DNA from: a virus
IMG/VR virus record: IMGVR_UViG_3300045988_058856
Coordinates: 1 to 35,673 of that record
Reading direction: 5' to 3' (one strand)
DNA length: 35,673 nt
The translations under genes were made by a program, and so were the position numbers. The notes under the pieces are model-generated. The model saw only the letters and a list, made by a program, of their open reading frames with translations, had not been told where the DNA came from and did no database searches. Shown one piece after another: positions 3,362 to 35,673 of the stretch (position 1 is its first letter; each line of letters opens with the position of its first letter).

Positions 3362-3399
3362 ATCTTTAATTTTTAAGTGGTTATTTCCTTTTGACACTT

Positions 3400-3430
3400 C
3401 AAAGATACGACTAGTTATCAGACTACCAAA
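3400..3430 (-). promoter_or_regulatory. Bacteroidota-type promoter, early cassette copy 1
   Basis: On the coding strand, TTTG (3430..3427), a 19-nt spacer, then TAtcTTTG (3407..3400). The ~50-nt block 3381-3431 is near-identical to 5297-5347. Confidence 0.6.
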
Positions 3431-3475
3431 ATATAGGATAAACTATTAACATCAATTCGCACTAACCGCCATGAG

Positions 3476-3784
3476 TTAACGCCCGTTAACATAAAAGTCT
3501 ATCAAATCCTTCAAATCGTTGTACTCGTCAGGGTTCGACACTACTCGCACATTGAAGTCAAGCGCGGCGATACGATCCAGTATAACACGCTGGATCGGTC
3601 TAGGTTTGCATCCGGTTGACTTGAACTCGACAAAGATAACCGTCCCACCCGGTAACAAGTACATCCGATCCGGCAAACCGTTAATAAATTGGGACAGCAA
3701 TTTGATTGCCATCCCTCCTTTATTCTCCACGTACTTAGACATAGTACGTTCAAATACCTTTTCACTGGTTTCCGTTGCCTTCAT
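3476..3784 (-). CDS. VRR-NUC domain nuclease (PD-(D/E)XK fold)
   Basis: 102 aa. GLPDRMYLLPGGTVIFVEFKSTGCKPRPIQ fits the VRR-NUC PD...E.K...Q pattern. This family is typically found next to an SNF2 helicase. Confidence 0.75.
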   Translation of the reverse strand: MKATETSEKVFERTMSKYVENKGGMAIKLLSQFINGLPDRMYLLPGGTVIFVEFKSTGCKPRPIQRVILDRIAALDFNVRVVSNPDEYNDLKDLIDFYVNGR

Positions 3785-5276: not shown

Positions 5277-5315
5277 GATTCTAATTTTTTAATTGGTTTA
5301 TTTCCTTTTGACACT

Positions 5316-5376
5316 TCAAAGATACAACAAGTTATTGAACTACCAAAACTTTTCTCAAAAAACTTTAGTATATTAA
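5316..5376 (-). promoter_or_regulatory. Bacteroidota-type promoter, early cassette copy 2, with upstream element
   Basis: TTTG (5346..5343), a 19-nt spacer, then TAtcTTTG (5323..5316). The 22-nt element at 5355-5376 matches 12996-13017 (20/22) at the same 8-nt gap upstream of the -33 box. Confidence 0.6.
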
Positions 5377-5412
5377 CAAAAATAAAGTCTCGCGTATCAC
5401 TACGAAAGACTT
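5374..5412 (-). terminator. Weak intrinsic-terminator-like hairpin downstream of the primase-helicase gene
   Basis: AAAGTCT (5383-5389) and AGACTTT (5406-5412) form a 7-bp stem, followed on the coding strand by ATTTTTGTT. The stem is AU-rich with a long loop, so it is weak. Confidence 0.3.
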
Positions 5413-5472: not shown

Positions 5473-7863
5473 TCACAAAGATAGTAATTTTTTGCTTTCC
5501 TCGCTACCTTTACGCACATAAACTACTTGTTGGCCGTACAATTTCGTTCTTTTTAACTTTCCTTTGTACCAACCTTTCATTTGTCGCATCGCCGTGGACA
5601 ATTCGCGCCCTTTCGCGCTTGTATAATCTTCTTTCCGGCGTCCCAGCGCATCCACCCAAAGCTCCATTAAACAGAACTCGTTTTTAACCGTGTCGCCTAT
5701 CTCGCCCAAACCGCCCGATAGGAAGTCCGCGCGTTGTTGTTCGGTGCGCTCTTCGTAGTCAGCCGGGAAAAGTCTATCTACATAGTTCTCTATAATACCT
5801 ACTAGAGGACTTTCTTCTGTAAATTCTTCGCGACCTTCACTTGCAATCGCTTCTGCTTCATCGGATAAGATAAGACTTTCCCCGCACATGTACAACTCCA
5901 TTGCTTCCGCCCATAGTTGGTCTACGACTTTTTCAAATGACTTGTCAAACAGCTTATGCGTGTTCCGGTTGGCGCGCACCTCTATAGGGAAGAAACGGCG
6001 GTTTCCGGTCTTATCCTTCAAAAACTCATCATCATTGGTAGACCCAAAAAATACGCACTGCCTCCTGTGTGTCTTGACACGGCGGGCGTATGCGCTACGG
6101 TACGTATCCTCGCGCTTGCTGATAAAATTCTTCGTGGCTTCTACGTCCGAACGGCGAAGGGCTGACAACTCGGCTAGCTCCACTATCCAGGCATGTTGTA
6201 TCGCTTCGTATGCTTTTTGGCCGGACACGTCCGTTAATGAATCATTAAACCAACCTTTTGAAAGCGCCTGTATAAGCGTGGACTTCCCCGCGCCCTGCCC
6301 GGAATACATCACAAGCGCGGTGTCAAATTTGCGTCCCGGCTCGTACACCCTAGTAACGGCGGCTACCAGCATTTTACGGAACGCCTCGGAAACATATATG
6401 CTAGGCTCTGCTCCCATGTAGTCAACTAAGAAATTATCTATCCGTTTCACGCCGTCCCATACCAGGCTCTCCAAGTATTTCTTGATAGGGTGGAAAGCGT
6501 TTTCGCTGCAAACCTTTTCCAGCGCATCAGTTAATTTGCTGTCATTGTAAATACCGTGCAAATCCTCGATGCGTCCGCGGATAATCGCTACTGCTGTATC
6601 GTCCAGCATGTCGCCCTTCTTGATATCATTCGAGAAAAACGGCGTACGGGTGTACACTATCGTATCAAGAAACAAGTCATACGCTAATAGATCATTGAGG
6701 AGAGGATCACATTTGAACGCGTTGACGAAGTTACGGACGGTGCACATTTTATCGCCCTTCTTATCCAGGTCCCAAACAAGCTCGGCGGCGGTCTGCGCGT
6801 CGCTCTTAACCTCGTCCGTGTATTCCTCGAAGTCACTTAGATTATCGTCAACGGCTACCATATCTTTAACGCATTCCTTATCGGCGCAAACTAGCTTGTT
6901 CATCTCGCGAGTACTGTCTTCTTTACCCAGGTGCCCGAACTTGTGCACCCGTACGAGATCATAGGCGTTGTATGCGTGTCCGTCTCCGATCGGATCGGTT
7001 GAGTGGTGGGAAAAACAAAGTACATCGTCATACACTACCAAGCCCGCCGCGCCTGATCCAAGCGTGTAGGTATAGCGTCCGTTGTCTACTTCCGTGTAAA
7101 CGTCCGGTAGGTATTTCTCTATGGCTTCCGGTATGGTGTACGAGCGGCAAAACGCGCCCACCAAACCCTCTTTGTCTCTAGGGTCTTTCACCATCTCCTT
7201 ACTAATCAGCGCGCGGGTATCGCGTTCCACATCTGAATGGAACGCCCATTTGCGCACGTCGCGCCATTCTTCATTGTCTCCGTACAAGCCTACCAGATAC
7301 TCGGCGTCGATCGGCTCGCCTTCAAACACTTCGAATAGCCCTTCTTGATCCTTAGAAAGGGATTGCCAGTACATCATACGTTCCGGCTGAAACGTTGTTT
7401 TGTCGAACAAGTCGATACCTAACAGCTCGGCTACTTTCCGCGCGGCTGCCTCGTACATAACCACGTCTGTAACCTCTTCTTTGAACGGCATAATAAGACG
7501 GTAACGGCGCGCGCCTGGTCTATCCGAACGCGTCGTATATATAACCGCTGCATAACCGTGAAAACGATCCTCAAAGTCTATCGGGAATAGATCATCGGCA
7601 AAGTCAATATCTAGCGTTATCATTGTGCGGGACATAACTGCCTTCTTGAGGCGTTGCGATCCTGACAGCTCGCCCGCCATGAATCCGCCTACATCCTTCA
7701 AAGACGATTTAGCGGGCTTATCCAGTTTGTCGTACTCGCGTACCGTTTCATTAGTGATAACAGGCTCGCCTAAACGTTTAACAAAATCGTCCCATGTGAG
7801 GCGCACCGCCTTCCATTTCAGAGACGCCGAAGAACCTGCGAGCGATAAGGTGTATTTTTCCAT
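5473..7863 (-). CDS. DNA primase-helicase: AEP/PrimPol-like N-terminus fused to a VirE/D5-like P-loop NTPase
   Basis: 796 aa. DxD-type motif ITLDIDFADD near the N-terminus. Walker A GQGAGKST and Walker B-like WIVELAEL in the C-terminal half. Confidence 0.8.
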   Translation of the reverse strand: MEKYTLSLAGSSASLKWKAVRLTWDDFVKRLGEPVITNETVREYDKLDKPAKSSLKDVGGFMAGELSGSQRLKKAVMSRTMITLDIDFADDLFPIDFEDRFHGYAAVIYTTRSDRPGARRYRLIMPFKEEVTDVVMYEAAARKVAELLGIDLFDKTTFQPERMMYWQSLSKDQEGLFEVFEGEPIDAEYLVGLYGDNEEWRDVRKWAFHSDVERDTRALISKEMVKDPRDKEGLVGAFCRSYTIPEAIEKYLPDVYTEVDNGRYTYTLGSGAAGLVVYDDVLCFSHHSTDPIGDGHAYNAYDLVRVHKFGHLGKEDSTREMNKLVCADKECVKDMVAVDDNLSDFEEYTDEVKSDAQTAAELVWDLDKKGDKMCTVRNFVNAFKCDPLLNDLLAYDLFLDTIVYTRTPFFSNDIKKGDMLDDTAVAIIRGRIEDLHGIYNDSKLTDALEKVCSENAFHPIKKYLESLVWDGVKRIDNFLVDYMGAEPSIYVSEAFRKMLVAAVTRVYEPGRKFDTALVMYSGQGAGKSTLIQALSKGWFNDSLTDVSGQKAYEAIQHAWIVELAELSALRRSDVEATKNFISKREDTYRSAYARRVKTHRRQCVFFGSTNDDEFLKDKTGNRRFFPIEVRANRNTHKLFDKSFEKVVDQLWAEAMELYMCGESLILSDEAEAIASEGREEFTEESPLVGIIENYVDRLFPADYEERTEQQRADFLSGGLGEIGDTVKNEFCLMELWVDALGRRKEDYTSAKGRELSTAMRQMKGWYKGKLKRTKLYGQQVVYVRKGSEESKKLLSL

Positions 7864-10660: not shown

Positions 10661-11824
10661 TTAGCCTTCTACGTCGAAGTCACAGAGCGGGCTATATTCT
10701 ACGCCCTTAGCGGATTCCGGCACTAGCTTTGGCGCTCCGGGTCTAGATTCGATCGCGTCTCCGAACCTCGCGCTAAACACCTTCTTGCCTACCAGCTTTT
10801 CGAGGTCGCCTATACCCTTTAACTTGATGTTTAAAACCTCGTCCTCTAGGAACTCGTTTAGAAGCGCTTGGCGTATCTTCGCCTCGTCCTTGATAACTCG
10901 GCTGGTTCTACCCGCTACGAGCTTGTAGCCCTCCCATTTGTGCCCCTGTATCGCTCTATCGTAGACGTACTTATTAACTGATTCGATCCAGCTCTTATAC
11001 GTGTCGATCTTGCCGATTAGGTCTACTATCTCCTCGTCTGATAATAACAGGGGCTCGGGCTTTTCTTCGAAGTCTGCAAGAATGGCGTCACGTTGCGCCC
11101 TGCATTGAGCCTTAACCGGACAGAATCCGCACCAACTTCCGATAACCTGCTTTCCTTTGCCCTGTATTGCTGCTTTTGCGGCCGGTTTCAGTACTTTTTC
11201 CGCCCAGTCGAGTAACTCACCCTTCGACATCTCGAAAGTGTCGTAGTGGTCTAGTCTTACCTGTGCGATCGTCATTCGAATTTTCTCGATATGATCCGTT
11301 TCCAGGCTTTTCAAGGTTCCAAGGGCGTACATTAACATTTGCTCGTTCATGTCGGCATACACCTTCACGCCTGCACCGTATTTCAGGTCTATGATGTGTA
11401 TCGTCTTGTCAGATACTAGCGTTACGTCTACCGATCCGAACGAATCCGGCGCGAAGTCTGTAATGTCTACCCGACGCTCTAGGAACGTACGGCACGCGCC
11501 GTCCTGCTTTTGCATCTCGTAGCCTTCCCCGATAACAAACTCACAATAGCTCCTTATATAGTCCGCCATATCGATACCGAAGAGCGGGTTTTCGAGATGT
11601 TCGTTTTTCAACGGTACTGCATCATCAATTATCGGATCGTATTCACCTTCCAGGTATTTGGTCAAAGCGTATTCGGCTATCTCGTGGGCTAGTGTCCCCT
11701 CCTCTGCGTAAACGCTTGACTTGCTGCCTGCGGCTTCCGCTAGTAGCGCCGATGGAGTGCAATTTATCCATCGTTTTGCGCTACTCGGCGATAAAATCGC
11801 GTGATCTCTTTCTGCGTGTCCCAT
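10661..11824 (-). CDS. PD-(D/E)XK exonuclease, Cas4/RecB-like (DUF2800-type), with Cys cluster
   Basis: 387 aa. N-terminal SPSSAKRWINC plus C-terminal CGFCPVKAQC give a 4-Cys pattern. IDLKYG is a nuclease-core-like motif. Confidence 0.75.
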   Translation of the reverse strand: MGHAERDHAILSPSSAKRWINCTPSALLAEAAGSKSSVYAEEGTLAHEIAEYALTKYLEGEYDPIIDDAVPLKNEHLENPLFGIDMADYIRSYCEFVIGEGYEMQKQDGACRTFLERRVDITDFAPDSFGSVDVTLVSDKTIHIIDLKYGAGVKVYADMNEQMLMYALGTLKSLETDHIEKIRMTIAQVRLDHYDTFEMSKGELLDWAEKVLKPAAKAAIQGKGKQVIGSWCGFCPVKAQCRAQRDAILADFEEKPEPLLLSDEEIVDLIGKIDTYKSWIESVNKYVYDRAIQGHKWEGYKLVAGRTSRVIKDEAKIRQALLNEFLEDEVLNIKLKGIGDLEKLVGKKVFSARFGDAIESRPGAPKLVPESAKGVEYSPLCDFDVEG

Positions 11825-12387
11825 TACAGACGAGTTGAGATGTATTCGATGAACTCCGCAAACATAGATTCCTTAAGTGTCGGGAAAGACGTTGCGCCTA
11901 CCTGTTCAAATGCTTCTTGCACTAGGGGTCTTTTCTTTGCGTTTAGTGCCTTCATAGCCCATTGCTTACACTCTTCAACTGTGTGTTCCGTTTCGTCCTT
12001 AGCGGGCTTCTCTACGGGCTTCTCTACGGGCTTCTCTACAGGCTTCTCTACGGGTGCTTTCGGGGCAGGCGCGGCTACTTCTTCCACTGGCGCGGGCGCT
12101 TCTTCCGGTTCTTCGATCGGGGCAGGCGCTGGTTCTTCCACCTTCTTCGTGCGGCTCGCTCTAGTCTTAGCGCGTTCCTCCTCCACGTGTTCGGCTACGG
12201 TCTTAACTGGCGCGGATTCTTCGCGCACTTTGGTTGCTTCTACAACTGTGTCCGCCAGTTTGTCAAGGTCGGTTTTACGTTCCGTTACTTCTGGCACGGC
12301 TTCTCCTGCTAGTTCGCGCAAATAGTTAGACGTCGCCAACAAATCCTGTTTACTCTCGTTTCCTAATAATTCGATTACTACTTTCAT
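11824..12387 (-). CDS. Hypothetical acidic protein with (PVEK)4 tandem repeat
   Basis: 187 aa. The 12-nt unit gggcttctctac occurs x4 at 12004-12051. TAATG overlap downstream and ATGA overlap upstream. Confidence 0.6.
   Translation of the reverse strand: MKVVIELLGNESKQDLLATSNYLRELAGEAVPEVTERKTDLDKLADTVVEATKVREESAPVKTVAEHVEEERAKTRASRTKKVEEPAPAPIEEPEEAPAPVEEVAAPAPKAPVEKPVEKPVEKPVEKPAKDETEHTVEECKQWAMKALNAKKRPLVQEAFEQVGATSFPTLKESMFAEFIEYISTRL
12004..12051. repeat. In-frame 12-nt tandem repeat x4
   Basis: gggcttctctac x3 followed by aggcttctctac. Encodes the PVEK repeats. Confidence 0.9.
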
Positions 12388-12563: not shown

Positions 12564-12880
12564 TGCATCTTTTTATTGAATTTAAAACTAAGTTCATTAG
12601 AGCCTCTAAAGGTTTTAACGTGATCGGAAAAAGCGGCTTTCCGGGCTTGCTCGAAAATGCTCTCATACCGTTTGGCGTGTGGAATAATAAAGCCTCGGAT
12701 TTTATACTTAAACTTTTTTCCGGCTTCTTCTTCTCGTTGCAAATCTTTGTAGACCATTCCCGACACACCCGGATAACCGTATATGTTCGTGACCTCGCCT
12801 ATAGTTTCGCACGCTTTAATCCTCTCCGTTATCGCTTTGTAAAAGAACGCTTCTAATCTATAAATGTTTATCTCTGCCAT
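12545..12880 (-). CDS. Hypothetical protein, first gene of the early block (111 aa)
   Basis: ATG 12880, 77 nt downstream of promoter P_A. Overlaps the HTH gene by 19 nt. Confidence 0.6.
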   Translation of the reverse strand: MAEINIYRLEAFFYKAITERIKACETIGEVTNIYGYPGVSGMVYKDLQREEEAGKKFKYKIRGFIIPHAKRYESIFEQARKAAFSDHVKTFRGSNELSFKFNKKMQWKKSS

Positions 12881-12956: not shown

Positions 12957-13017
12957 CAAAGGTACAGCTTTATTCTGAACTGCCAAACGTTTTCCCAAAA
13001 AACTTTAGTAATTTAAC
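12957..13017 (-). promoter_or_regulatory. Early-block promoter P_A with upstream element
   Basis: TTTG (12987..12984), a 19-nt spacer, then TAccTTTG (12964..12957). The -33 region and the 22-nt upstream element (12996-13017) are homologous to the cassette at 5331-5376. Confidence 0.55.
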
Positions 13018-13048
13018 TCTGATTAACTGTTTTGAAGGTTTGATAACA

Positions 13049-13438
13049 GTGTAAAAGATGAATGGCCGTTTTTCAACGTATCTTTTACACCTTAACTGCG
13101 TGCGTATCAGATAGTTAAGTGGCAAAAACGGGAGAAATGTAAAAGATGGAAAGATGTTTTCTATAAAGTTTAAAATAAAATATTTCCATAAATTCATTCA
13201 CATATTAATTCATATATTTACATATTTTATAGATTATAGTACTTTTTCATTTTTATCTCTATATAACATCTTTACATCTTTTACAAATGATATATACAGA
13301 TAGATAAAATACTAGTTATTAGTGAGTTAAGTGTAAAAGATACAAATTTTAATCTTTTACATGCAAAAACGCCAACTCGTTAAGAATCAGCGTTTTAAAT
13401 TTTTGAGTGTAAAAGATGAAAAGCGTTTTGTAAAAGAT
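13049..13438. repeat. Iteron array A: eight full TGTAAAAGAT boxes (plus one degenerate copy) around an AT-rich core
   Basis: Forward boxes at 13050, 13138, 13332, 13408 and 13429. Reverse boxes at 13080, 13276 and 13352, plus a degenerate copy at 13268. AT-rich core about 13157-13267. No credible ORF. Confidence 0.85.
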
Positions 13439-13446
13439 GGAAGGCG

Positions 13447-14025
13447 TTATTTGCTGAAATCGGCTGAAAAATTCACGTGAATTGTAGATTTCGGGTTTTT
13501 ATTCGAAACCGTGATTTTTTGGACCGGTTTCCCGATTTTGAAGAAGAGAAACTTTTTTTGCTTGACCGATCCGATCACGTCCAGCGTATCAACGCTATTA
13601 AAATCTATTTTAGTCGTATCCGTCCCGGCAGAAATTTCTATATTATTCCAACCGTCATTGTATTTTGCCGTCCGGACGTCCCCGACGTGTACCGTCTTGA
13701 TAATCGTGTCGATCTTCGTTACCACTTCGGTACGGGTCGCGCTCTTCAGCTCCCTGATCTTTATCCCCGCCTCGCGTACCTTACTATATAGATCAGCGTT
13801 GTATAATTCCAGCTCGCCCTTCTCCAATTTCAGTTGCCTAGCCTCTTCCGCATAATCTCCTGCCGTAGTCCTGAATGCCATGGCTTTGGAATTAAGAGCG
13901 CTAATGTTGTTTTCCTGCCTCTCTAGCTCTATTCTCTGCTTCTGTACTGTCTTGTATGATGTGTACAATAAAATGGCTAGAAGGACAAGCAAACACACTA
14001 AAATCTTATCTAATGTTATCTTCAT
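13447..14025 (-). CDS. Membrane-anchored coiled-coil protein, spanin-like by position
   Basis: 192 aa. N-terminal TM helix ILVCLLVLLAILLY followed by coiled-coil-like sequence. ATGA overlap with the endolysin stop. Last gene of the late block. Confidence 0.4.
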   Translation of the reverse strand: MKITLDKILVCLLVLLAILLYTSYKTVQKQRIELERQENNISALNSKAMAFRTTAGDYAEEARQLKLEKGELELYNADLYSKVREAGIKIRELKSATRTEVVTKIDTIIKTVHVGDVRTAKYNDGWNNIEISAGTDTTKIDFNSVDTLDVIGSVKQKKFLFFKIGKPVQKITVSNKNPKSTIHVNFSADFSK

Positions 14026-20696: not shown

Positions 20697-23210
20697 TTAC
20701 AGGCTAGCCGCTACTTGTACACTATTATATTGCTGTTGACCCTCGTCTATGTCGGTTACTGCCACCTGCGGAGCCGGAACGCTAGCCACTGAATCGTACA
20801 TGATCGCCGCCAGTTTTTGAAGGCTGTCATTCGATAGGCTAAAATTGCTAGGTAACGTCATAGTTGATCCGCTGCCTATGTCTATTTTTCCGCCGTTGGC
20901 GTACCGATACACACCGGACGAACCGAACGAACGCCCGCCGTACTCCATATTAAGAGCTGATAGGGCGTTAATCGCGCCCGACGCCTTACGGTTCAAAATA
21001 TACATGTTCTCTCCGCCCTCGGCTTCGAACTGTTGACCGTTTGATCCGGTGAACGTCACGCCGCCAGCCGCATGGCTAGGGCCATATATTTGCCCGCCCT
21101 TCGCGTATTTCTTCACGCTCGTGTTAATCTTGGTGTCCGGGTCTTTGGTCTTGTTAATGCTCATAACGTTTTTCATACCCGCCGCCACTACGATAGCCGC
21201 CTGCGCGATACCCCAGATACCGCCCTGCGCCAGTGCTTTAGACGCTCCTAAATACGTGTTTATGAGCGCCTGCGCCGTGGCAAATGCTTTTCCCGCTGCG
21301 CTCTCTTCGCCTAACAGGCTTGAGAGTTGTCCGGCTGTGCCCGCCGCCATTTCCAATTGCGCGTTATAGTACTTCCGTCTCACATCGTCCTTCATCATTT
21401 CGAAACGTTCGGTTATCGCGGTTGTTTCCGCTCCGATGGCTTCCGCGTTCGCGATCTCCGCCGCTTTTTGCGCGTCCAATCTTGCAAGCTGGCTTTCCAG
21501 ATCATTAGTCATTTTCATGTCAGCTAATGATCGCTCGTTCTCTAGGTTGAGGGCTTGGCGGTCTCGTTCTTGCTGGTCTTCCTCGTCCTTCCGGGCCTTG
21601 ACCTCCGCGGCGTACTCTAGTTCCAATTGGCGAACGTTATTAATGTACTCTTGTTCCCCGATAAGCCCCTGCGCCCGTCTGTACGTTTCAATCTCTATCT
21701 TTTGATCGTTGACCGCTTGCAGTTCTTGCAACGATATTTTAGCGCCTTCCAGCTCCCGTTGTGCTATGTCAAGTTGCATACTTGTAACGGCTTCTGAATA
21801 CTTCTTCAGCTGTGCGTCCTGCGCCGCCTTGATCGCGTCCTGCGCCTTCTTTTGCGCGTCTGCTTCTCTCTTCGCCGCGTCTTCCGCCGCCTTCGCTGAC
21901 TTCGCTGCCGCCGCTTGTGCTGCTGCTGCCTGCTTGTCACGCTCCTGTTTGATGAATCCGGACACCTGACCCGCCATTTCCCTCTCCTGCGTGGCATATT
22001 GGGCGCGCGCTGCTTCCAGCGCTGCAAGGGCTTCCTGTTCTTTCCGTGCGTCCTCGTCGCTAGTATATCCTAGTTGGTTCTCGGCTTTTATCTGCTTATA
22101 TTTCGCATCCAGTACGGACAACTCCATATCACGGATGGCGTGCAATTTTTCCCTAGCTTGTTCCAGCAACTTGGTGCGCTCCGCTGCCGATTTGTTTTGG
22201 TCTGCTGCCAGCGTTTTAAGTTCTTCCATCTCGCGCCGCATTTGCGCCATCGGTACAAGTGCCGCCGTTTCAGCCTGGTAAATGCGCTGCGTCTCGCCTG
22301 CCAGCCGTGCGCCTTCCGCCGCTGCCCTCTTCGTCTCCTCACTGATAAGCCCTAACTTATCCAGAAGCCATGTAACTCCCTTGGCAAGGTTTTCAAGAAG
22401 AAAGGCTACGCCTTCAAACAAACCGGTTATCCAGTCCAGCAAACGCCCGAAAACGACCTTAAACGGCGCGAACGCCGCATTTAAACTAGTCGCCAACTCG
22501 CTGTTACGTTTCATCAGTTTCTCAATGATGCCGATAAGGGTTAAGACAAGCGACACGACAAATATAATCGGGTTCGCCTTTAACGCCGCGTTGAACGCCT
22601 GCACCCCGGCGATGCCACTCTTCATCTGTCCCACCAGCGCGCCAGTGCCCCCGGTTAGTCCCTGCGTTTGGAGTATGCCGTCCTTGACGCTTTCGGCGTA
22701 GTTACCCACGTTACGGCGGTTGTCACCTACCGACTTTTCCAGCTCCTTGAGCTTGTCCGATAACGCTTTGGTCTGCTCGGTTAGGTCTTGCCCTTCTTTG
22801 CTGGTAGTCCGTTGCGCCTCGCTCATCTTGTTTAGCTCGGCGGTGTTTTGCGCCAGTTGGGCGCGTAGCGCGTTAACGCTCGTAGCCTCGTTGTCCAGGA
22901 GCGTTTTTGTAGACTTGATCTCGGCGTTATTCTGTTTGTTCGCCTCGGCATTGTCCAGTATTGCTTTCTGCGTCTCGATCAGAGACTTGTTCAGCTTCTT
23001 AACCGTCGCGTCGTACTTGTCCTGTTGTACAAGTCCGTCCGCGTAGTTCTGATTTAGCGCGTCCAGCTCCTTCTTCTCGGAGGCGTACGCCGCTTGCAAA
23101 TCCTTCTTAGTTTTTGCAAGGGCTATACTCTTGGCTATTAACGCGTCTAACCCCTTCTCGGCTTCAGAAGTGCCGAAATTGAGGTCTAATAGTGTTACTT
23201 GATCCGCCAT
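20697..23210 (-). CDS. Tape-measure-like protein
   Basis: 837 aa. Long Ala/Gln/Lys/Glu coiled-coil tracts, internal hydrophobic segments (PIIFVVSLVLTLIGII; GIWGIAQAAIVVAAG) and a Gly-rich C-terminus with GPSHAAGG. Confidence 0.6.
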   Translation of the reverse strand: MADQVTLLDLNFGTSEAEKGLDALIAKSIALAKTKKDLQAAYASEKKELDALNQNYADGLVQQDKYDATVKKLNKSLIETQKAILDNAEANKQNNAEIKSTKTLLDNEATSVNALRAQLAQNTAELNKMSEAQRTTSKEGQDLTEQTKALSDKLKELEKSVGDNRRNVGNYAESVKDGILQTQGLTGGTGALVGQMKSGIAGVQAFNAALKANPIIFVVSLVLTLIGIIEKLMKRNSELATSLNAAFAPFKVVFGRLLDWITGLFEGVAFLLENLAKGVTWLLDKLGLISEETKRAAAEGARLAGETQRIYQAETAALVPMAQMRREMEELKTLAADQNKSAAERTKLLEQAREKLHAIRDMELSVLDAKYKQIKAENQLGYTSDEDARKEQEALAALEAARAQYATQEREMAGQVSGFIKQERDKQAAAAQAAAAKSAKAAEDAAKREADAQKKAQDAIKAAQDAQLKKYSEAVTSMQLDIAQRELEGAKISLQELQAVNDQKIEIETYRRAQGLIGEQEYINNVRQLELEYAAEVKARKDEEDQQERDRQALNLENERSLADMKMTNDLESQLARLDAQKAAEIANAEAIGAETTAITERFEMMKDDVRRKYYNAQLEMAAGTAGQLSSLLGEESAAGKAFATAQALINTYLGASKALAQGGIWGIAQAAIVVAAGMKNVMSINKTKDPDTKINTSVKKYAKGGQIYGPSHAAGGVTFTGSNGQQFEAEGGENMYILNRKASGAINALSALNMEYGGRSFGSSGVYRYANGGKIDIGSGSTMTLPSNFSLSNDSLQKLAAIMYDSVASVPAPQVAVTDIDEGQQQYNSVQVAASL

Positions 23211-31262: not shown

Positions 31263-32435
31263 CTAATCATTTCTCGCGTACTTCGGGCGGTATTTACGTA
31301 TAAGATAGTCAACGCCGTAGCGCACCGCATCCAATGCATGGTTATAAGCGTCTACCGGCTCGTTCGTATACGTGTCGGTCAGGTTGTCCTTGACGTAGGT
31401 GTAATTGTCCGCCTCGTCCAGTACGTTAGTACTCCGCTTCGTTACGAACAGATTGAACTGCTTCACCTGCTGGATGCCCGCCCTTATCGATCCCTTTCCC
31501 TTGATGCAGGGGATCGTGTTACAGCCTAGGCCGCGTAGCTCTATGATAGACTTCTGCTCGGCGTTGTCGCATACCGTAATGGTACGGTCCAGTCTTTCCG
31601 CCTTAAGGCGTTCGGCGATCGTGCGGTTCAGCATCTTCGTCTGATAACAAACCTCGTCTATATACAAGTTCATTCCCCGCATGTAGATTTTGACAATAGC
31701 GGTCGGGTCGTTCTGGAAGCCAAAATCAAGCCCTGTGACGAACTTTACGTCCTCACCCGTTAAATCCTCCGGCAGCGCCTCGATCGTCTCAATTTGGGGG
31801 TATACAAGCCCTTCCAGCCCGCCCGTCAGTCCTTCACCGTAGACGCGCCACCAATTGGCATCCTTTGCGTTCCGTTCGATCGCCTCAACCTGCTGCTTCG
31901 ATAAGTACGGGTTGTCCTTATAGGTTGAATGGATCGTGACGTACTTGTCCCCTACGAAGTCCGTCTCGCCCCAGAAGCGGCGTACCGGGTTAAAGTCGAT
32001 GATAACCTTAAGCGTGGTACGTACGTCCAACTGACGAAAGATTTCGCGGGGTATGCGCTGCGCCTCATTGATGAAAAGAATGTCACGTGCAGGGCCGTGA
32101 ACCTTTGACGCGTTATCACACCCGAAGAATTCGATACACACGCCCGGTTTAACCGTGTAGATCATATCAGACTTGTTGAGGGCGTTATCGTCCCAAAGTC
32201 CCTCGTCCAGTAACATGTTTTGGAAGTCACGGAACATACCGCGCTTCACGGCGGGGAGCGTGTCCGTAACGCATGAGATCATCAGGGGGTCGGGGCTTTC
32301 CCTCGCCACGAGATAAAGGAGCTGTAACACGCTCCACGTCTTAGAGGAACGCGTACCGCCTTTGCTCGCGATCCCTCTTATGTTCGGGTCGACAAAATGA
32401 TCTATCATCTTATTGAAGACATAGGTACAATTCAT
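31263..32435 (-). CDS. terL: Terminase large subunit (PBSX/Terminase_3-like)
   Basis: 390 aa. Walker A-like SKGGTRSSKTWS, Walker B-like DILFINEA, nuclease-half motifs GLDFGFQNDPTA and NHALDAVRY. Confidence 0.9.
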   Translation of the reverse strand: MNCTYVFNKMIDHFVDPNIRGIASKGGTRSSKTWSVLQLLYLVARESPDPLMISCVTDTLPAVKRGMFRDFQNMLLDEGLWDDNALNKSDMIYTVKPGVCIEFFGCDNASKVHGPARDILFINEAQRIPREIFRQLDVRTTLKVIIDFNPVRRFWGETDFVGDKYVTIHSTYKDNPYLSKQQVEAIERNAKDANWWRVYGEGLTGGLEGLVYPQIETIEALPEDLTGEDVKFVTGLDFGFQNDPTAIVKIYMRGMNLYIDEVCYQTKMLNRTIAERLKAERLDRTITVCDNAEQKSIIELRGLGCNTIPCIKGKGSIRAGIQQVKQFNLFVTKRSTNVLDEADNYTYVKDNLTDTYTNEPVDAYNHALDAVRYGVDYLIRKYRPKYARND

Positions 32436-33142
32436 TTCTTCTCCTCCTCGCCCTTATGGTCCTTCTTGAAATCTTTCAGTTTCCCCATCCTCGCGGACGC
32501 TTTCGGATCGGTGACGTTAACCGTCAAGCCGCCCTTGATACTCTCGCCGTTGGACGTGTAGTCCATCTGCATCTTGATCCCTCGTAGTGCCCTGATATAT
32601 TGCGCGTCGAACTGCCCGACGCTCGCACCCTGATCCATGTCCGCCGCGATCTCGGCGCGTATGCGGTCTATCGTATCTACGAAGTCCTTGCAAACCGATA
32701 AGCCGAACTCCTCGAAGTTCTTCATGTAGGTCTGCCTCCGCTCTGATATATAAGATACGGACGCCCCCAGGAAAGCCGTAAACTCACTTTCGCTTTGCAA
32801 GTGCTTCTTCGGCACTTCATAGAGCGTCCCGGCGGCCGGGCCGGACTTTATCGCCTCGTACACTATAACGGGCGTGGCCTCGCACCAAGCCGCGTAAATG
32901 GCATAGGCTTCCCATAGCTCGGCGGGGTCCTGCCAGACGGGCGTTTTACCGAACCGGCGCGTAGCCAGCTGGTAACAACGGGTGCACTCGAACGAATCAG
33001 AGAGGTATTGCGTAGTCGCGTACATAGGTTTTAGAGCACGAGCGCCACACGCCGCTTTAATTCGCTCCTCCGCTACGGGCTTCTCCTTTGGAAGCTCCAC
33101 GGGCTTCGTGGTTTCTGTTATTTGTTTCTTCTTTGTAGCCAT
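32432..33142 (-). CDS. terS: Terminase small subunit candidate
   Basis: 236 aa, ATGA-coupled to terL. Basic N-terminus, PAELWEAYAIYAAWCE motif and HTH-like FTAFLGASVSYISERR. Confidence 0.55.
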   Translation of the reverse strand: MATKKKQITETTKPVELPKEKPVAEERIKAACGARALKPMYATTQYLSDSFECTRCYQLATRRFGKTPVWQDPAELWEAYAIYAAWCEATPVIVYEAIKSGPAAGTLYEVPKKHLQSESEFTAFLGASVSYISERRQTYMKNFEEFGLSVCKDFVDTIDRIRAEIAADMDQGASVGQFDAQYIRALRGIKMQMDYTSNGESIKGGLTVNVTDPKASARMGKLKDFKKDHKGEEEKK

Positions 33143-33166
33143 ATAATTTTATTTTACATTCCTGTA

Positions 33167-33194
33167 CAAAAGTAATCATTTCACCCGTCTCAAA
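33167..33194 (-). promoter_or_regulatory. Late-block promoter candidate P_B
   Basis: TTTG (33194..33191), a 16-nt spacer (shorter than the 18-19 nt seen in the early promoters), then TActTTTG (33174..33167). It lies 25 nt upstream of the terS ATG. Confidence 0.4.
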
Positions 33195-33275
33195 CGCCCT
33201 GTACGCCTACATAATCCGTAAAATTCGCTCTAACTGATTCAAACACAGCACTTTAGCTAAATAGGCCGTTTTTAG

Positions 33276-33653
33276 TGTAAAAGATAGAATTATACCATCT
33301 TTTACACCCTAACTAATTGCGTATCAGTGAGTTACAGGCAAAAAACGGCTAATGTAAAAGATGAAACATACTTTCTCTATTAGTTCTAAAATAAAAAAAA
33401 AGACGAAATAAATTATTTAAAATAACAATAGTATATTTATGTTAACTATATTTCTTCTTTTTAAAAGGTACTCTATAGTAATCATCTTTACATCTTTTAC
33501 AAACAGTATATATTACAGTATAAAGTATTATAAATAAGCAAGTTAGGTGTAAAAGATACAAATTTTAATCTTTTACATCAAAAACTTGAAAAGTGCGTTC
33601 TGCGTCCTGTGAGTGTGGTAGGTGTAAAAGATGAAAGGTGATTTGTAAAAGAT
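33276..33653. repeat. Iteron array B: same eight-box syntax as array A
   Basis: Forward boxes at 33276, 33353, 33548, 33623 and 33644. Reverse boxes at 33297, 33492 and 33568, plus a degenerate copy at 33484. The 32-nt block 33547-33578 is identical to 13331-13362. AT-rich core about 33363-33483. Confidence 0.85.
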
Positions 33654-33782
33654 GTATTTGACTACTTTTTTGTCAAAAACACGCTTTTTAGTTAAAATAC
33701 CGTTAAATTCAAACATTTTCTCTAAAAAGTTTTCTCTCACAAAGTTTTTTCCGAAGTGCGTCAGAAGCATGTTAACAATTTT

Positions 33783-33819
33783 AACACAAAAAGGGATTAA
33801 CGTTTTTATACATTAACCC
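33783..33819 (-). terminator. Rho-independent terminator ending the early block
   Basis: Coding strand reads GGGTTAATG-N8-CGTTAATCCC (9 bp including one G-U pair, with one bulged nt) followed by TTTTTGTGTT. The stem starts 8 nt after the stop at 33828. Confidence 0.55.
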
Positions 33820-33827
33820 CTCAATCC

Positions 33828-35455: not shown

Positions 35456-35673
35456 ACTTTCTTTATTATTATATTAACATCCATTTTCCGCGCAAAAGGT
35501 ACGGTACCTTTATTTAGCTTGTACTCCTCGCACTCTTCATCTGTCAAGGCGAAGAATATAGAATCTATTTGAGGCTCTATTGGCTCGTACAAATAGCTCC
35601 CTAATTTCCTGTTACGTCCTAAGTACCTGTAATGCACTCCATCGATTAGGGCGATTATATCACCCACATTATA
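35452..35673 (-). CDS. Junction-spanning small gene (3' part plus duplicated region); the true ATG is at window position 70
   Basis: The tracked start 35667 is GTG. The frame stays open to the window end and continues through the 55-nt overlap to ATG 70. Confidence 0.55.
   Translation of the reverse strand, partial: YNVGDIIALIDGVHYRYLGRNRKLGSYLYEPIEPQIDSIFFALTDEECEEYKLNKGTVPFARKMDVNIIIKKV

Follow-up and report, generated by a model that had tools for sequence, protein, structure and literature searches.

What is the function of the gene-free DNA at the junction between the late and early gene blocks of the virus assembled as IMG/VR record IMGVR_UViG_3300045988_058856? A preliminary description of this 35,673-nt stretch (the whole of which we call the window) had drawn attention to positions 13049-13438, where copies of a 10-bp box stand on either side of an AT-rich core, and had read the arrangement as either an iteron origin of replication or a multi-operator control region. 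This element, which we refer to as array A, is located between a gene for a DUF6549 protein of the lysis block (13447-14025) and the early operon, which starts at 12880. Our analysis favours an iteron origin beside an easily melted core, given that the layout follows the grammar of the origins of staphylococcal pathogenicity islands (SaPIs), that the phage encodes a full-length homologue of the SaPI initiator Rep, and that the boxes co-vary with this protein. Array A is not unique in the genome, however, and has a paralogue (array B, 33276-33653) at the other junction between early and late genes. We think it probable that arrays A and B are both origin modules of the SaPI Rep type, and that they are read by the phage's own PriRep-like primase-helicase.

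The architecture of array A was largely as first described. All eight perfect copies of the box, TGTAAAAGAT, begin where they had been placed: at 13050, 13138, 13332, 13408 and 13429 on the plus strand, and at 13080, 13276 and 13352 on the minus strand. The boxes at 13050-13059 (plus) and 13080-13089 (minus) form a palindrome with an N20 spacer, and those at 13332-13341 (plus) and 13352-13361 (minus) form a second palindrome (13332-13361) with an N10 spacer, TACAAATTTTA, which does not vary between the two arrays or among the aligned relatives. The last two boxes (13408-13417 and 13429-13438, both plus) are direct repeats whose starts lie 21 nt apart, again as claimed. The core (13157-13267), a putative DNA unwinding element, had been called very AT-rich; it reaches 87% AT over 13157-13256, and no other 100-bp window of the genome is less stable as a duplex. 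On one side the core is abutted by the plus-strand box at 13138-13147, which is followed by a degenerate 9-mer, TGGAAAGAT, at 13147-13155. On the other side, and in the opposite orientation (minus strand, 13268-13285), a degenerate box that had likewise been reported correctly (ATCTTTACA, 13268-13276) overlaps a perfect one at 13276-13285. These tandem boxes make up an inverted repeat of 26 nt that flanks the core, with arms at 13138-13163 and 13260-13285.

Other claims about array A held only in part. Successive starts are separated by 30, 58, 130, 8, 56, 20, 56 and 21 nt; helical phasing is a good description of the spacings of 20-21 and 30 nt, but not of the recurring 55-58 nt, which amounts to about 5.3 turns. 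The gap had also been said to hold no credible open reading frame (ORF). It indeed contains no gene, but it does contain a 75-aa ORF with an ATG start (12970-13197, minus strand), which we rejected as a gene because stops or frameshifts interrupt it in 31/31 aligned relatives. If our reading is right, the gaps that hold the arrays are functional DNA and not missed genes, which is a caution for annotators.

A scan of the whole window for the box, with up to one mismatch, returned 17 matches against 2.6 expected, a number reached by 0/100 shuffles. The impression that no perfect copy occurs elsewhere proved to be wrong: eight further perfect copies lie at 33276-33653, and every one of the 16 perfect boxes in the genome falls within one of the two arrays. 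Array B has plus-strand boxes starting at 33276, 33353, 33548, 33623 and 33644, minus-strand boxes starting at 33297, 33492 and 33568, a degenerate box at 33484-33492 and an AT-rich core at 33363-33483. Its boxes follow the order and orientation of those in array A, with start-to-start spacings of 21, 56, 131, 8, 56, 20, 55 and 21 nt. Bases 1-55 of the window are identical to bases 35619-35673; the assembly is therefore circularly closed, with a unit of about 35,618 bp, and on this circle the arrays are direct paralogues with the same syntax, 20,226 and 15,392 bp apart. Read in gene orientation, with b standing for ATCTTTTACA and B' for its complement, each array runs b b, a B'/b palindrome, B'B', a core of about 110 bp, b plus a degenerate b, and a second B'/b palindrome. 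Both contain eight perfect and one or two degenerate boxes, divided three and five between the two sides of the core, and in both the core-abutting boxes face the core with the same (ATC) end.

When the two arrays are aligned, the box columns are identical throughout (80/80), whereas identity is about 60% in the core (70/116) and in the remaining inter-box columns (107/177), with indels, which argues for selection on the boxes themselves. We also considered wholesale gene conversion between A and B, and rejected it because orthologous arrays in other phages resemble one another more closely (about 85%) than arrays A and B do. In AT content and in duplex instability alike, the two cores take the top two places among the 100-bp windows of the genome; their duplex stabilities are -99.8 kcal/mol for core A and -101.8 kcal/mol for core B (33378-33477) against a genome mean of -138.4 (sd 9.6). 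Between the boxes, the arrays have in common an element of the form TAACT-N15-AGTTA around an invariant TGCGTATCAG (13090-13131 and 33307-33348). This element is kept in array A of relatives, is replaced in array B of the phages BKR1 and BK735P3, and could be a further site for a protein, or else a hairpin.

We gathered IMG/VR loci anchored on the DUF6549 gene (72), on the large terminase gene terL (80) and on the primase-helicase gene (80). More than 100 relatives retain both arrays, and neither their two positions nor their orientation varied in any relative examined; when an array was used as the query against close GenBank relatives, 19/19 of those matched carried two copies. In more distant relatives, whose hosts are B. 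caccae and B. thetaiotaomicron, each of the two junctions still has a large gap without genes. In many gaps the discovery of top k-mers was swamped by AT-rich low-complexity words, and we used the frame ATC-N4/5-CA instead. Within this frame the dominant repeat of the gaps changes by clade, the variants being ATCTTTTACA, ATCTTTGACA, ATCTGTGACA, ATCTATTACA, ATCTATGCA/ATCAATGCA and ATCTATCCA and the inserts, by class, TTTTA, TTTGA, TGTGA, TATTA, TATG/AATG and TATC. In genomes with well-defined boxes, gaps A and B, scored independently, contain the same type, and every box class examined shows the pattern '> < > << [AT core] >(>) .. >' in its two gaps. Even phages of a single host species, B. ovatus, have either T-type or G-type boxes. 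Concerted change at 16 or more positions per genome, in direct and inverted copies alike and differing within one host genus, indicates a sequence-specific reader that is encoded by the phage.

Which protein might this reader be? Within the closest clade gene alleles reassort, also on either side of the arrays, and association mapping is therefore possible there. We compared box variation with nine proteins: residues 397-796 of the 796-aa primase-helicase, the 111-, 187- and 179-aa early proteins (p111, p187 and p179), a 59-aa HTH_17 protein (HTH59), the DUF6549 protein, the small and large terminase proteins TerS and TerL, and p101. The leading column among 2,049 was residue 778 of the primase-helicase, within the motif YG-x-Q (p=8.8e-6, kinship ignored), which tracks position 7 of boxes of the form ATCNTT[G/T]ACA. 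Genomes with Arg778 have 47 G to 17 T at this position, and those with Gln, Ala or Val have 4 G to 111 T; counted by genome, the association stands at 10/11 versus 2/21 (Fisher p=1e-5, kinship again ignored). The runner-up was residue 771, in the first wing strand, and the columns of the other eight proteins scanned gave a best p of at least 8e-3. The rule for residue 778, set down beforehand, was right in 13/13 held-out GenBank genomes, of which 11 have Arg (pooled 50 G to 11 T) and two do not (0 G to 6 T). This link is a correlation, and it suggests matched Rep-iteron specificity. HTH59, p111 and p179 had been put forward as candidate binders of the boxes; none of the three is associated with box variation, and the signal points instead to the primase-helicase (5473-7863). 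TerS and p101 were rejected as box readers on the same ground. A second residue-to-base correlation, at box position 4, may exist among IMG/VR loci of the ATCWATGCA class (for example L056-L062 versus L047, L051 and L075): where ATCTATGCA dominates, a helix of the C-terminal domain starts TSKAREV, and where ATCAATGCA dominates it starts VAKARE[IL]. Contig 034673, known only for its array B, is the one exception.

The proposed reader, encoded on the minus strand, is by domain, profile and structure comparisons a fused primase and VapE-type superfamily 3 (SF3) helicase with a C-terminal domain, of the 'PriRep' type. It has a VapE-like SF3 helicase domain (PF05272, E=2.2e-76) and matches the SaPI1 Rep1 chain of PDB entry 7PDS in a phmmer comparison (E=2.8e-74), a structure in which Rep1 is bound to DNA (PMC9371898). 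A profile of the helicase and C-terminal domain built from 48 homologues aligns to residues 13-468 of the 477 in the Rep1 chain, C-terminal domain included (E=3.6e-158). An AlphaFold model of residues 382-796 has a mean predicted local distance difference test (pLDDT) score of 90.7, and its C-terminal domain takes the order strand-helix-helix-strand-strand at 729-784 (block-mean pLDDT about 86-94); foldseek matched the model to all six chains of 7PDS with template modelling (TM) scores of 0.84-0.85 over 418-430 columns (E about 1e-37, best 4e-38). By these sequence and model comparisons the protein is a member of the SaPI Rep/PriRep family and a full-length homologue of Rep1. Its putative winged-helix domain is encoded at 5476-5700 (minus strand; residues ~722-796); residues 762/763 close the putative recognition helix, and residue 778 opens the second wing strand. 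No other part of the helicase diverges as much between box classes as its last ~100 residues, with 25-40% identity to the B. thetaiotaomicron phages compared with 55-60% overall. In SaPIs, Rep is a helicase-initiator that loads itself and recognises iterons with its C-terminal winged helix, and SaPI origins consist of 6-12 iterons, at least two per side and in opposite directions, around a central AT-rich region; the iterons are penta- or hexanucleotides, and in SaPI5 primase and Rep are fused (PMC9371898).

Taken together, these observations suggest a mechanism in which the primase-helicase would bind the 10-bp boxes by means of its C-terminal winged-helix domain. Because the core-abutting boxes face the core with the same end, two hexamers of the helicase could assemble there in opposite orientation. 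The core would then melt, as a SaPI origin does on being bound by its Rep without ATP, the fused primase would prime synthesis, and the family-A DNA polymerase and the gp2.5/Enc34-type SSB (which binds single-stranded DNA) of the phage would take over. The outlying boxes, that is the two palindromes and the 21-nt direct pair, might increase occupancy locally or give order to a larger nucleoprotein complex. Binding, melting and firing, and whether one or both copies fire, are what we infer from this arrangement.

Several observations weigh against this explanation. The boxes are 9-10 bp long, whereas those of SaPIs are 5-6 bp, and a SaPI origin lies immediately downstream of rep. Here, no box occurs near the primase-helicase gene, which ends at 5473; array A lies ~5.2 kb upstream of the start of the gene, and array B lies beyond the early block. 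The boxes are degenerate in many relatives, and very much so in some genomes, while the sequence between them is conserved to the same degree as the boxes in many relatives (in LG-type genomes, 0.78 vs 0.845 identity to the window). This implies additional constraints on the module, for instance from regulatory elements or promoters, from host-factor sites or from some further function. The association tests carry no phylogenetic correction, the held-out set is unbalanced with respect to residue 778, and most of the metagenomic contigs come from a single dataset (IMG 3300045988). A further rule, which mapped 'crisp' arrays (those with many identical boxes) to residues 762/763, looked strong in the discovery set, where RQMKGW went with crisp arrays in 8/8 cases and RQ[LI]GGW with non-crisp arrays in 23/24 (p=8.6e-7). 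It was right in only 10/13 held-out genomes and is either weak or overfitted. When the C-terminal domain was modelled alone, from a 12-row alignment, pLDDT fell to 59 and foldseek returned only noise. A profile of this domain alone likewise found no meaningful match in PDB sequences or Pfam; the homology emerged only from the longer profile and model, in which the helicase is included.

The gene layout and promoters around the arrays bear on the alternatives. Megablast finds ~83% identity over more than 80% of the window to siphoviruses of Bacteroides ovatus, B. kribbi and B. koreensis, including BK735P3 and BKR1, and relatives of this type belong to group 3 of the proposed family 'Bacteroiduroviridae' (PMC12694917). 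Judged by its ends and its matches, the window is the closed ~35.6-kb genome of a Bacteroides siphovirus. Nearly all of its long ORFs are on the minus strand. In gene orientation the circle runs from array A through the early block, a terminator, array B and the late block back to array A, so that array A marks the late-to-early junction and array B the early-to-late junction. The early block begins with p111, HTH59 (the second gene of the operon), the 187-aa repeat protein, a DUF2800 protein that is a PD-(D/E)XK exonuclease, and an Enc34/gp2.5-type SSB; it continues with the family-A polymerase, the 796-aa primase-helicase, a gene at 3476-3784 whose orthologues in BKR1, BO1 and BKO1-1 are annotated as a VRR-NUC endonuclease, an SNF2 helicase and, last, p179. 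The late block consists of terS, terL, structural genes, an M15 peptidase and the DUF6549 gene, in that order. No DnaB-type helicase or loader was found among the early proteins scanned, which do not cover every small ORF. The GC skew of the window is monotonic and has no origin signal, which is uninformative because all genes are on one strand. A strong terminator-like hairpin of 13 pairs followed by a T-run lies at 33791-33822 (minus strand), after the last early gene and upstream of array B. Between this terminator and array B, at 33690-33765, a GAGAAAACTTTNT-type motif is present two or three times, and the B. caccae clade (for example L107, L110, L112, L114, L116, L117 and L150) has AAAACTTTT, with up to one mismatch, 11-14 times in its gap B; from their sequence, these motifs are a second repeat system, different from the boxes.

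Promoters of Bacteroides have -33 and -7 elements that are usually 19-21 nt apart. An early promoter of this type, read directly from the letters, lies at 12957-12987 (minus strand), with TTTG at -33, an N19 spacer and TACCTTTG at -7; it is 60 bp beyond the last box and outside the part that array A has in common with array B. Upstream of terS, at 33167-33194 (minus strand), a more tentative promoter-like site consists of TTTG and TACTTTTG separated by 16 nt, which is shorter than usual; it too falls outside the stretch that the two arrays share. In the window the nearest box is 60 bp (A) or about 80 bp (B) from the -33-like element, with no overlap or abutment. A scan of the window with a sigma-70 promoter model gave counts near the shuffle expectation; this model is not applicable to Bacteroides promoters. 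A promoter-like module of ~60-90 nt occurs three times upstream of early genes (3370-3460, 5287-5377 and 12957-13017), on the minus strand, with -33 TTTG and -7 TAnnTTTG elements and a conserved upstream stretch of the AAAGTTTTTTGGGAAAA type, and the three copies are probably early promoters.

How, then, do other explanations fare? The multi-operator region of the preliminary description would make the arrays binding sites for a transcription factor such as HTH59, which would set the early-to-late switch while replication starts elsewhere. The first gene of a block (the early operon, or terS/terL) does follow directly downstream of each array, the HTH gene is second in the early operon, and in BKR1 and BK735P3 two direct boxes stand immediately upstream of the -7-like element of terS. 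Yet HTH59 is nearly invariant across box phenotypes (92-100%), and is 100% identical to that of the window in two genomes with degenerate boxes, 044847 and 020353; box type is tracked by no column of HTH59, p111, p187, p179 or p101 (best p at least 7.5e-3); the boxes of the window are 60-480 bp upstream of the promoters and not over them; and the AT-rich core with its inverted flanking boxes is left unexplained. We therefore regard this explanation as unlikely, although it is possible that a Rep bound at the arrays also modulates the adjacent promoters, which would be a compatible second function of the same complexes. A real, if tentative, possibility is that one array alone fires and that the other is a Rep-bound auxiliary site, either a fork barrier for a switch from theta replication to concatemer synthesis or an enhancer like crr of phage P4. 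This would refine the explanation that we prefer and not contradict it. The Bacillus phage SPP1 has two similar origins of repeats and AT-rich DNA, oriL and oriR, ~13 kb apart on the circularised genome and both bound by gp38 (PMC6316719; PMC3485210). In SPP1, forks have been proposed to stall at gp38-bound oriR and to restart by recombination, bringing about a theta-to-sigma switch with the help of an exonuclease, an annealing protein, an SSB and a resolvase (PMC6316719). A matching toolkit is present here in the DUF2800 exonuclease, the Enc34/gp2.5-type SSB-annealing protein and the VRR-NUC-annotated gene, and the constant orientation of both arrays in relatives is also in keeping with a single origin. 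Against it, both arrays have the complete grammar and equally unstable cores, and neither has a sequence mark of a defective copy.

It is highly improbable that the arrays are pac recognition sites for the small terminase. Several phages have pac sites made of repeated boxes on bent, AT-rich DNA, and array B is just upstream of terS, but array A is 20 kb away from that gene and two pac sites per genome would be odd. Moreover, the two TerS alleles among relatives (90-100% and 64-67% identity to the window) track neither box type nor crispness, and what does change along with the TerS allele is the sequence of gap B at its promoter-proximal end, not the boxes. Sites for host proteins (DnaA, IHF/HU-like proteins or a host regulator), or else a mobile or recombination element, are also very improbable. 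AT-rich, repeat-bearing intergenic modules at mosaic boundaries can be recombination hot spots, and alleles flanking the arrays do reassort; the box ATCTATCCAC of B. thetaiotaomicron phages has what we take to be a likeness to the DnaA box. The boxes nevertheless differ within one host genus and even, as T-type and G-type, within B. ovatus, which is hard to reconcile with a host protein, and the arrays keep the same two positions in every relative, which is not what a mobile element would be expected to do. In gaps of L004 and L005, TATCTATCCAC is the form taken by part of the boxes in the class of the B. thetaiotaomicron phages (e.g. L005 38170-38182). The TATCCAC within TATCTATCCAC presumably resembles the bacterial DnaA box, whose consensus we take to be TTATCCACA, and this may be either coincidence or a connection with host DnaA. 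A structured non-coding RNA, or a cruciform or hairpin formed in DNA by the inverted boxes, might seem to be favoured by the folding of the transcribed strand, which exceeds that of shuffled sequences in both arrays (z = -6.2 for A and -4.7 for B). The fold signal, however, comes from interchangeable inverted boxes, and A and B pair different partners. In 31 relatives, box-arm changes disrupt pairing in 324 instances and compensate for one another in 16, and direct boxes change in step with inverted ones, which pairing does not explain. Searches of the whole window with Rfam (gathering thresholds) and ARAGORN gave no match. The idea is largely refuted, and there is scarcely any likelihood left in it.

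If the arrays are Rep-type modules, they might also act as a working pair and not as redundant origins, with the primase-helicase at both junctions coupling replication to gene expression through bridging or a fork barrier. We consider this doubtful, and put it forward as speculation. Under bridging, handcuffing or looping between A and B would insulate the early and late blocks and shut off or activate the adjacent promoters, in the manner of SV40 T antigen; as a fork barrier, one copy would convert theta replication to recombination-driven concatemer synthesis. Were the pairing to be real, the code that links Arg778 to G7 and Gln/Ala778 to T7 would be a handle with which to rewire each site separately.

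Other features of these genomes vary beside the arrays. The product of the 187-aa early gene (ORF 11824-12387, minus strand), just downstream of the HTH gene, is by its sequence a length-variable repeat protein: the gene has about five copies of a 12-nt tandem repeat, CTTCTCTACGGG, at 11983-12070, and its counterparts in relatives have 4-11 copies of 18-nt repeats (L001 35019-35073; L002 36325-36475). TerS of the window is only 64-67% identical to that of most close relatives, compared with 93-96% for the adjoining TerL, and the sequence from array B to terS is replaced together with the TerS allele. The terS gene and its upstream region (32432-33275) look like a swapped cassette, and possibly differ in pac specificity. 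In phage BT03 (PV788058, L005), the early promoter is separated from the first early gene by three tandem units of ~122 bp, richer in G+C (20985-21310); they are absent from the window and may be a repeated structured 5' leader.

Literature searches found no origin defined for the large set of siphoviruses of gut Bacteroides and Phocaeicola in the proposed 'Bacteroiduroviridae' (PMC12694917), and no description of the arrays. If our explanation is correct, it would provide the origin or origins and the initiator for more than 100 sequenced relatives, and would extend the self-loading-helicase origins of the SaPI type to phages of the Bacteroidota, in a conserved two-origin layout at early/late junctions. 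The relatives would also form a natural specificity series, with at least six box classes and a single residue-to-base switch, for direct tests of how a winged helix recognises its iterons. The components might be of use as parts for Bacteroides replicons and for phage engineering.

Among known systems the closest likeness is to the SaPIs (PMC9371898; PDB 7PDS, 7OLA), with which this phage has in common a VapE-type SF3 initiator, a C-terminal winged-helix iteron reader and, as in SaPI5, fusion to a primase. The eight boxes plus one or two degenerate ones in each array are split by an AT-rich core and inverted across it, and initiator-iteron specificity varies between relatives, as it does for SaPIs. 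Beyond the differences in box length and in the location of the origin already discussed, this is a virulent-type Bacteroides siphovirus and not a Gram-positive satellite, and it has two modules per genome, at early/late junctions, with extra palindromic box pairs. A SaPI5-like origin with seven 10-bp iterons around an AT-rich region, together with a PriRep5-like helicase, has been predicted for the Enterococcus phage Abitsa (Efquatrovirus; PMC13517437, 2026). That origin is, like ours, a computational prediction, but it is single and located near a genome terminus, and the accessible text reports neither a second copy nor iteron-protein co-variation. The likeness to SPP1 lies in the two modules of the same syntax, kilobases apart, and in the analogues of the SPP1 switch proteins that are encoded here. 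SPP1, however, relies on gp38, the loader gp39 and the DnaB-type helicase gp40, and not on a self-loading SF3 helicase fused to a primase; its repeats are direct, and its oriL is inside gene 38. The alpha primase-helicase of the satellite phage P4 has a C-terminal origin-binding domain and uses the same short iteron at two distant loci, ori and crr, both of which are needed in cis. A multifunctional primase-helicase and one short box at two distant loci are found here too, but ori and crr differ in architecture whereas arrays A and B are full paralogues; no P4 alpha chain appeared in searches of PDB sequences with the profile of the C-terminal domain (E up to 10) or of the helicase (E up to 0.01). 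In the origins of simian virus 40 (SV40; large T antigen) and papillomaviruses (E1), inverted sites flank an easily melted centre on which a double hexamer forms, the origin sits between early and late units, and the initiator regulates both. The inverted sites around an AT-rich centre and the position at an early/late junction recur here, although the relation of the helicase fold to eukaryotic SF3 proteins is only distant (foldseek TM 0.3-0.48 to poxvirus D5/E5 and African swine fever virus PrimPol) and the DNA-binding domains are different. What is new here with respect to the SaPIs and Abitsa is the occurrence of such modules in a family of Bacteroides phages, their duplication at the early/late junctions, their detachment from rep and the natural series of specificities.

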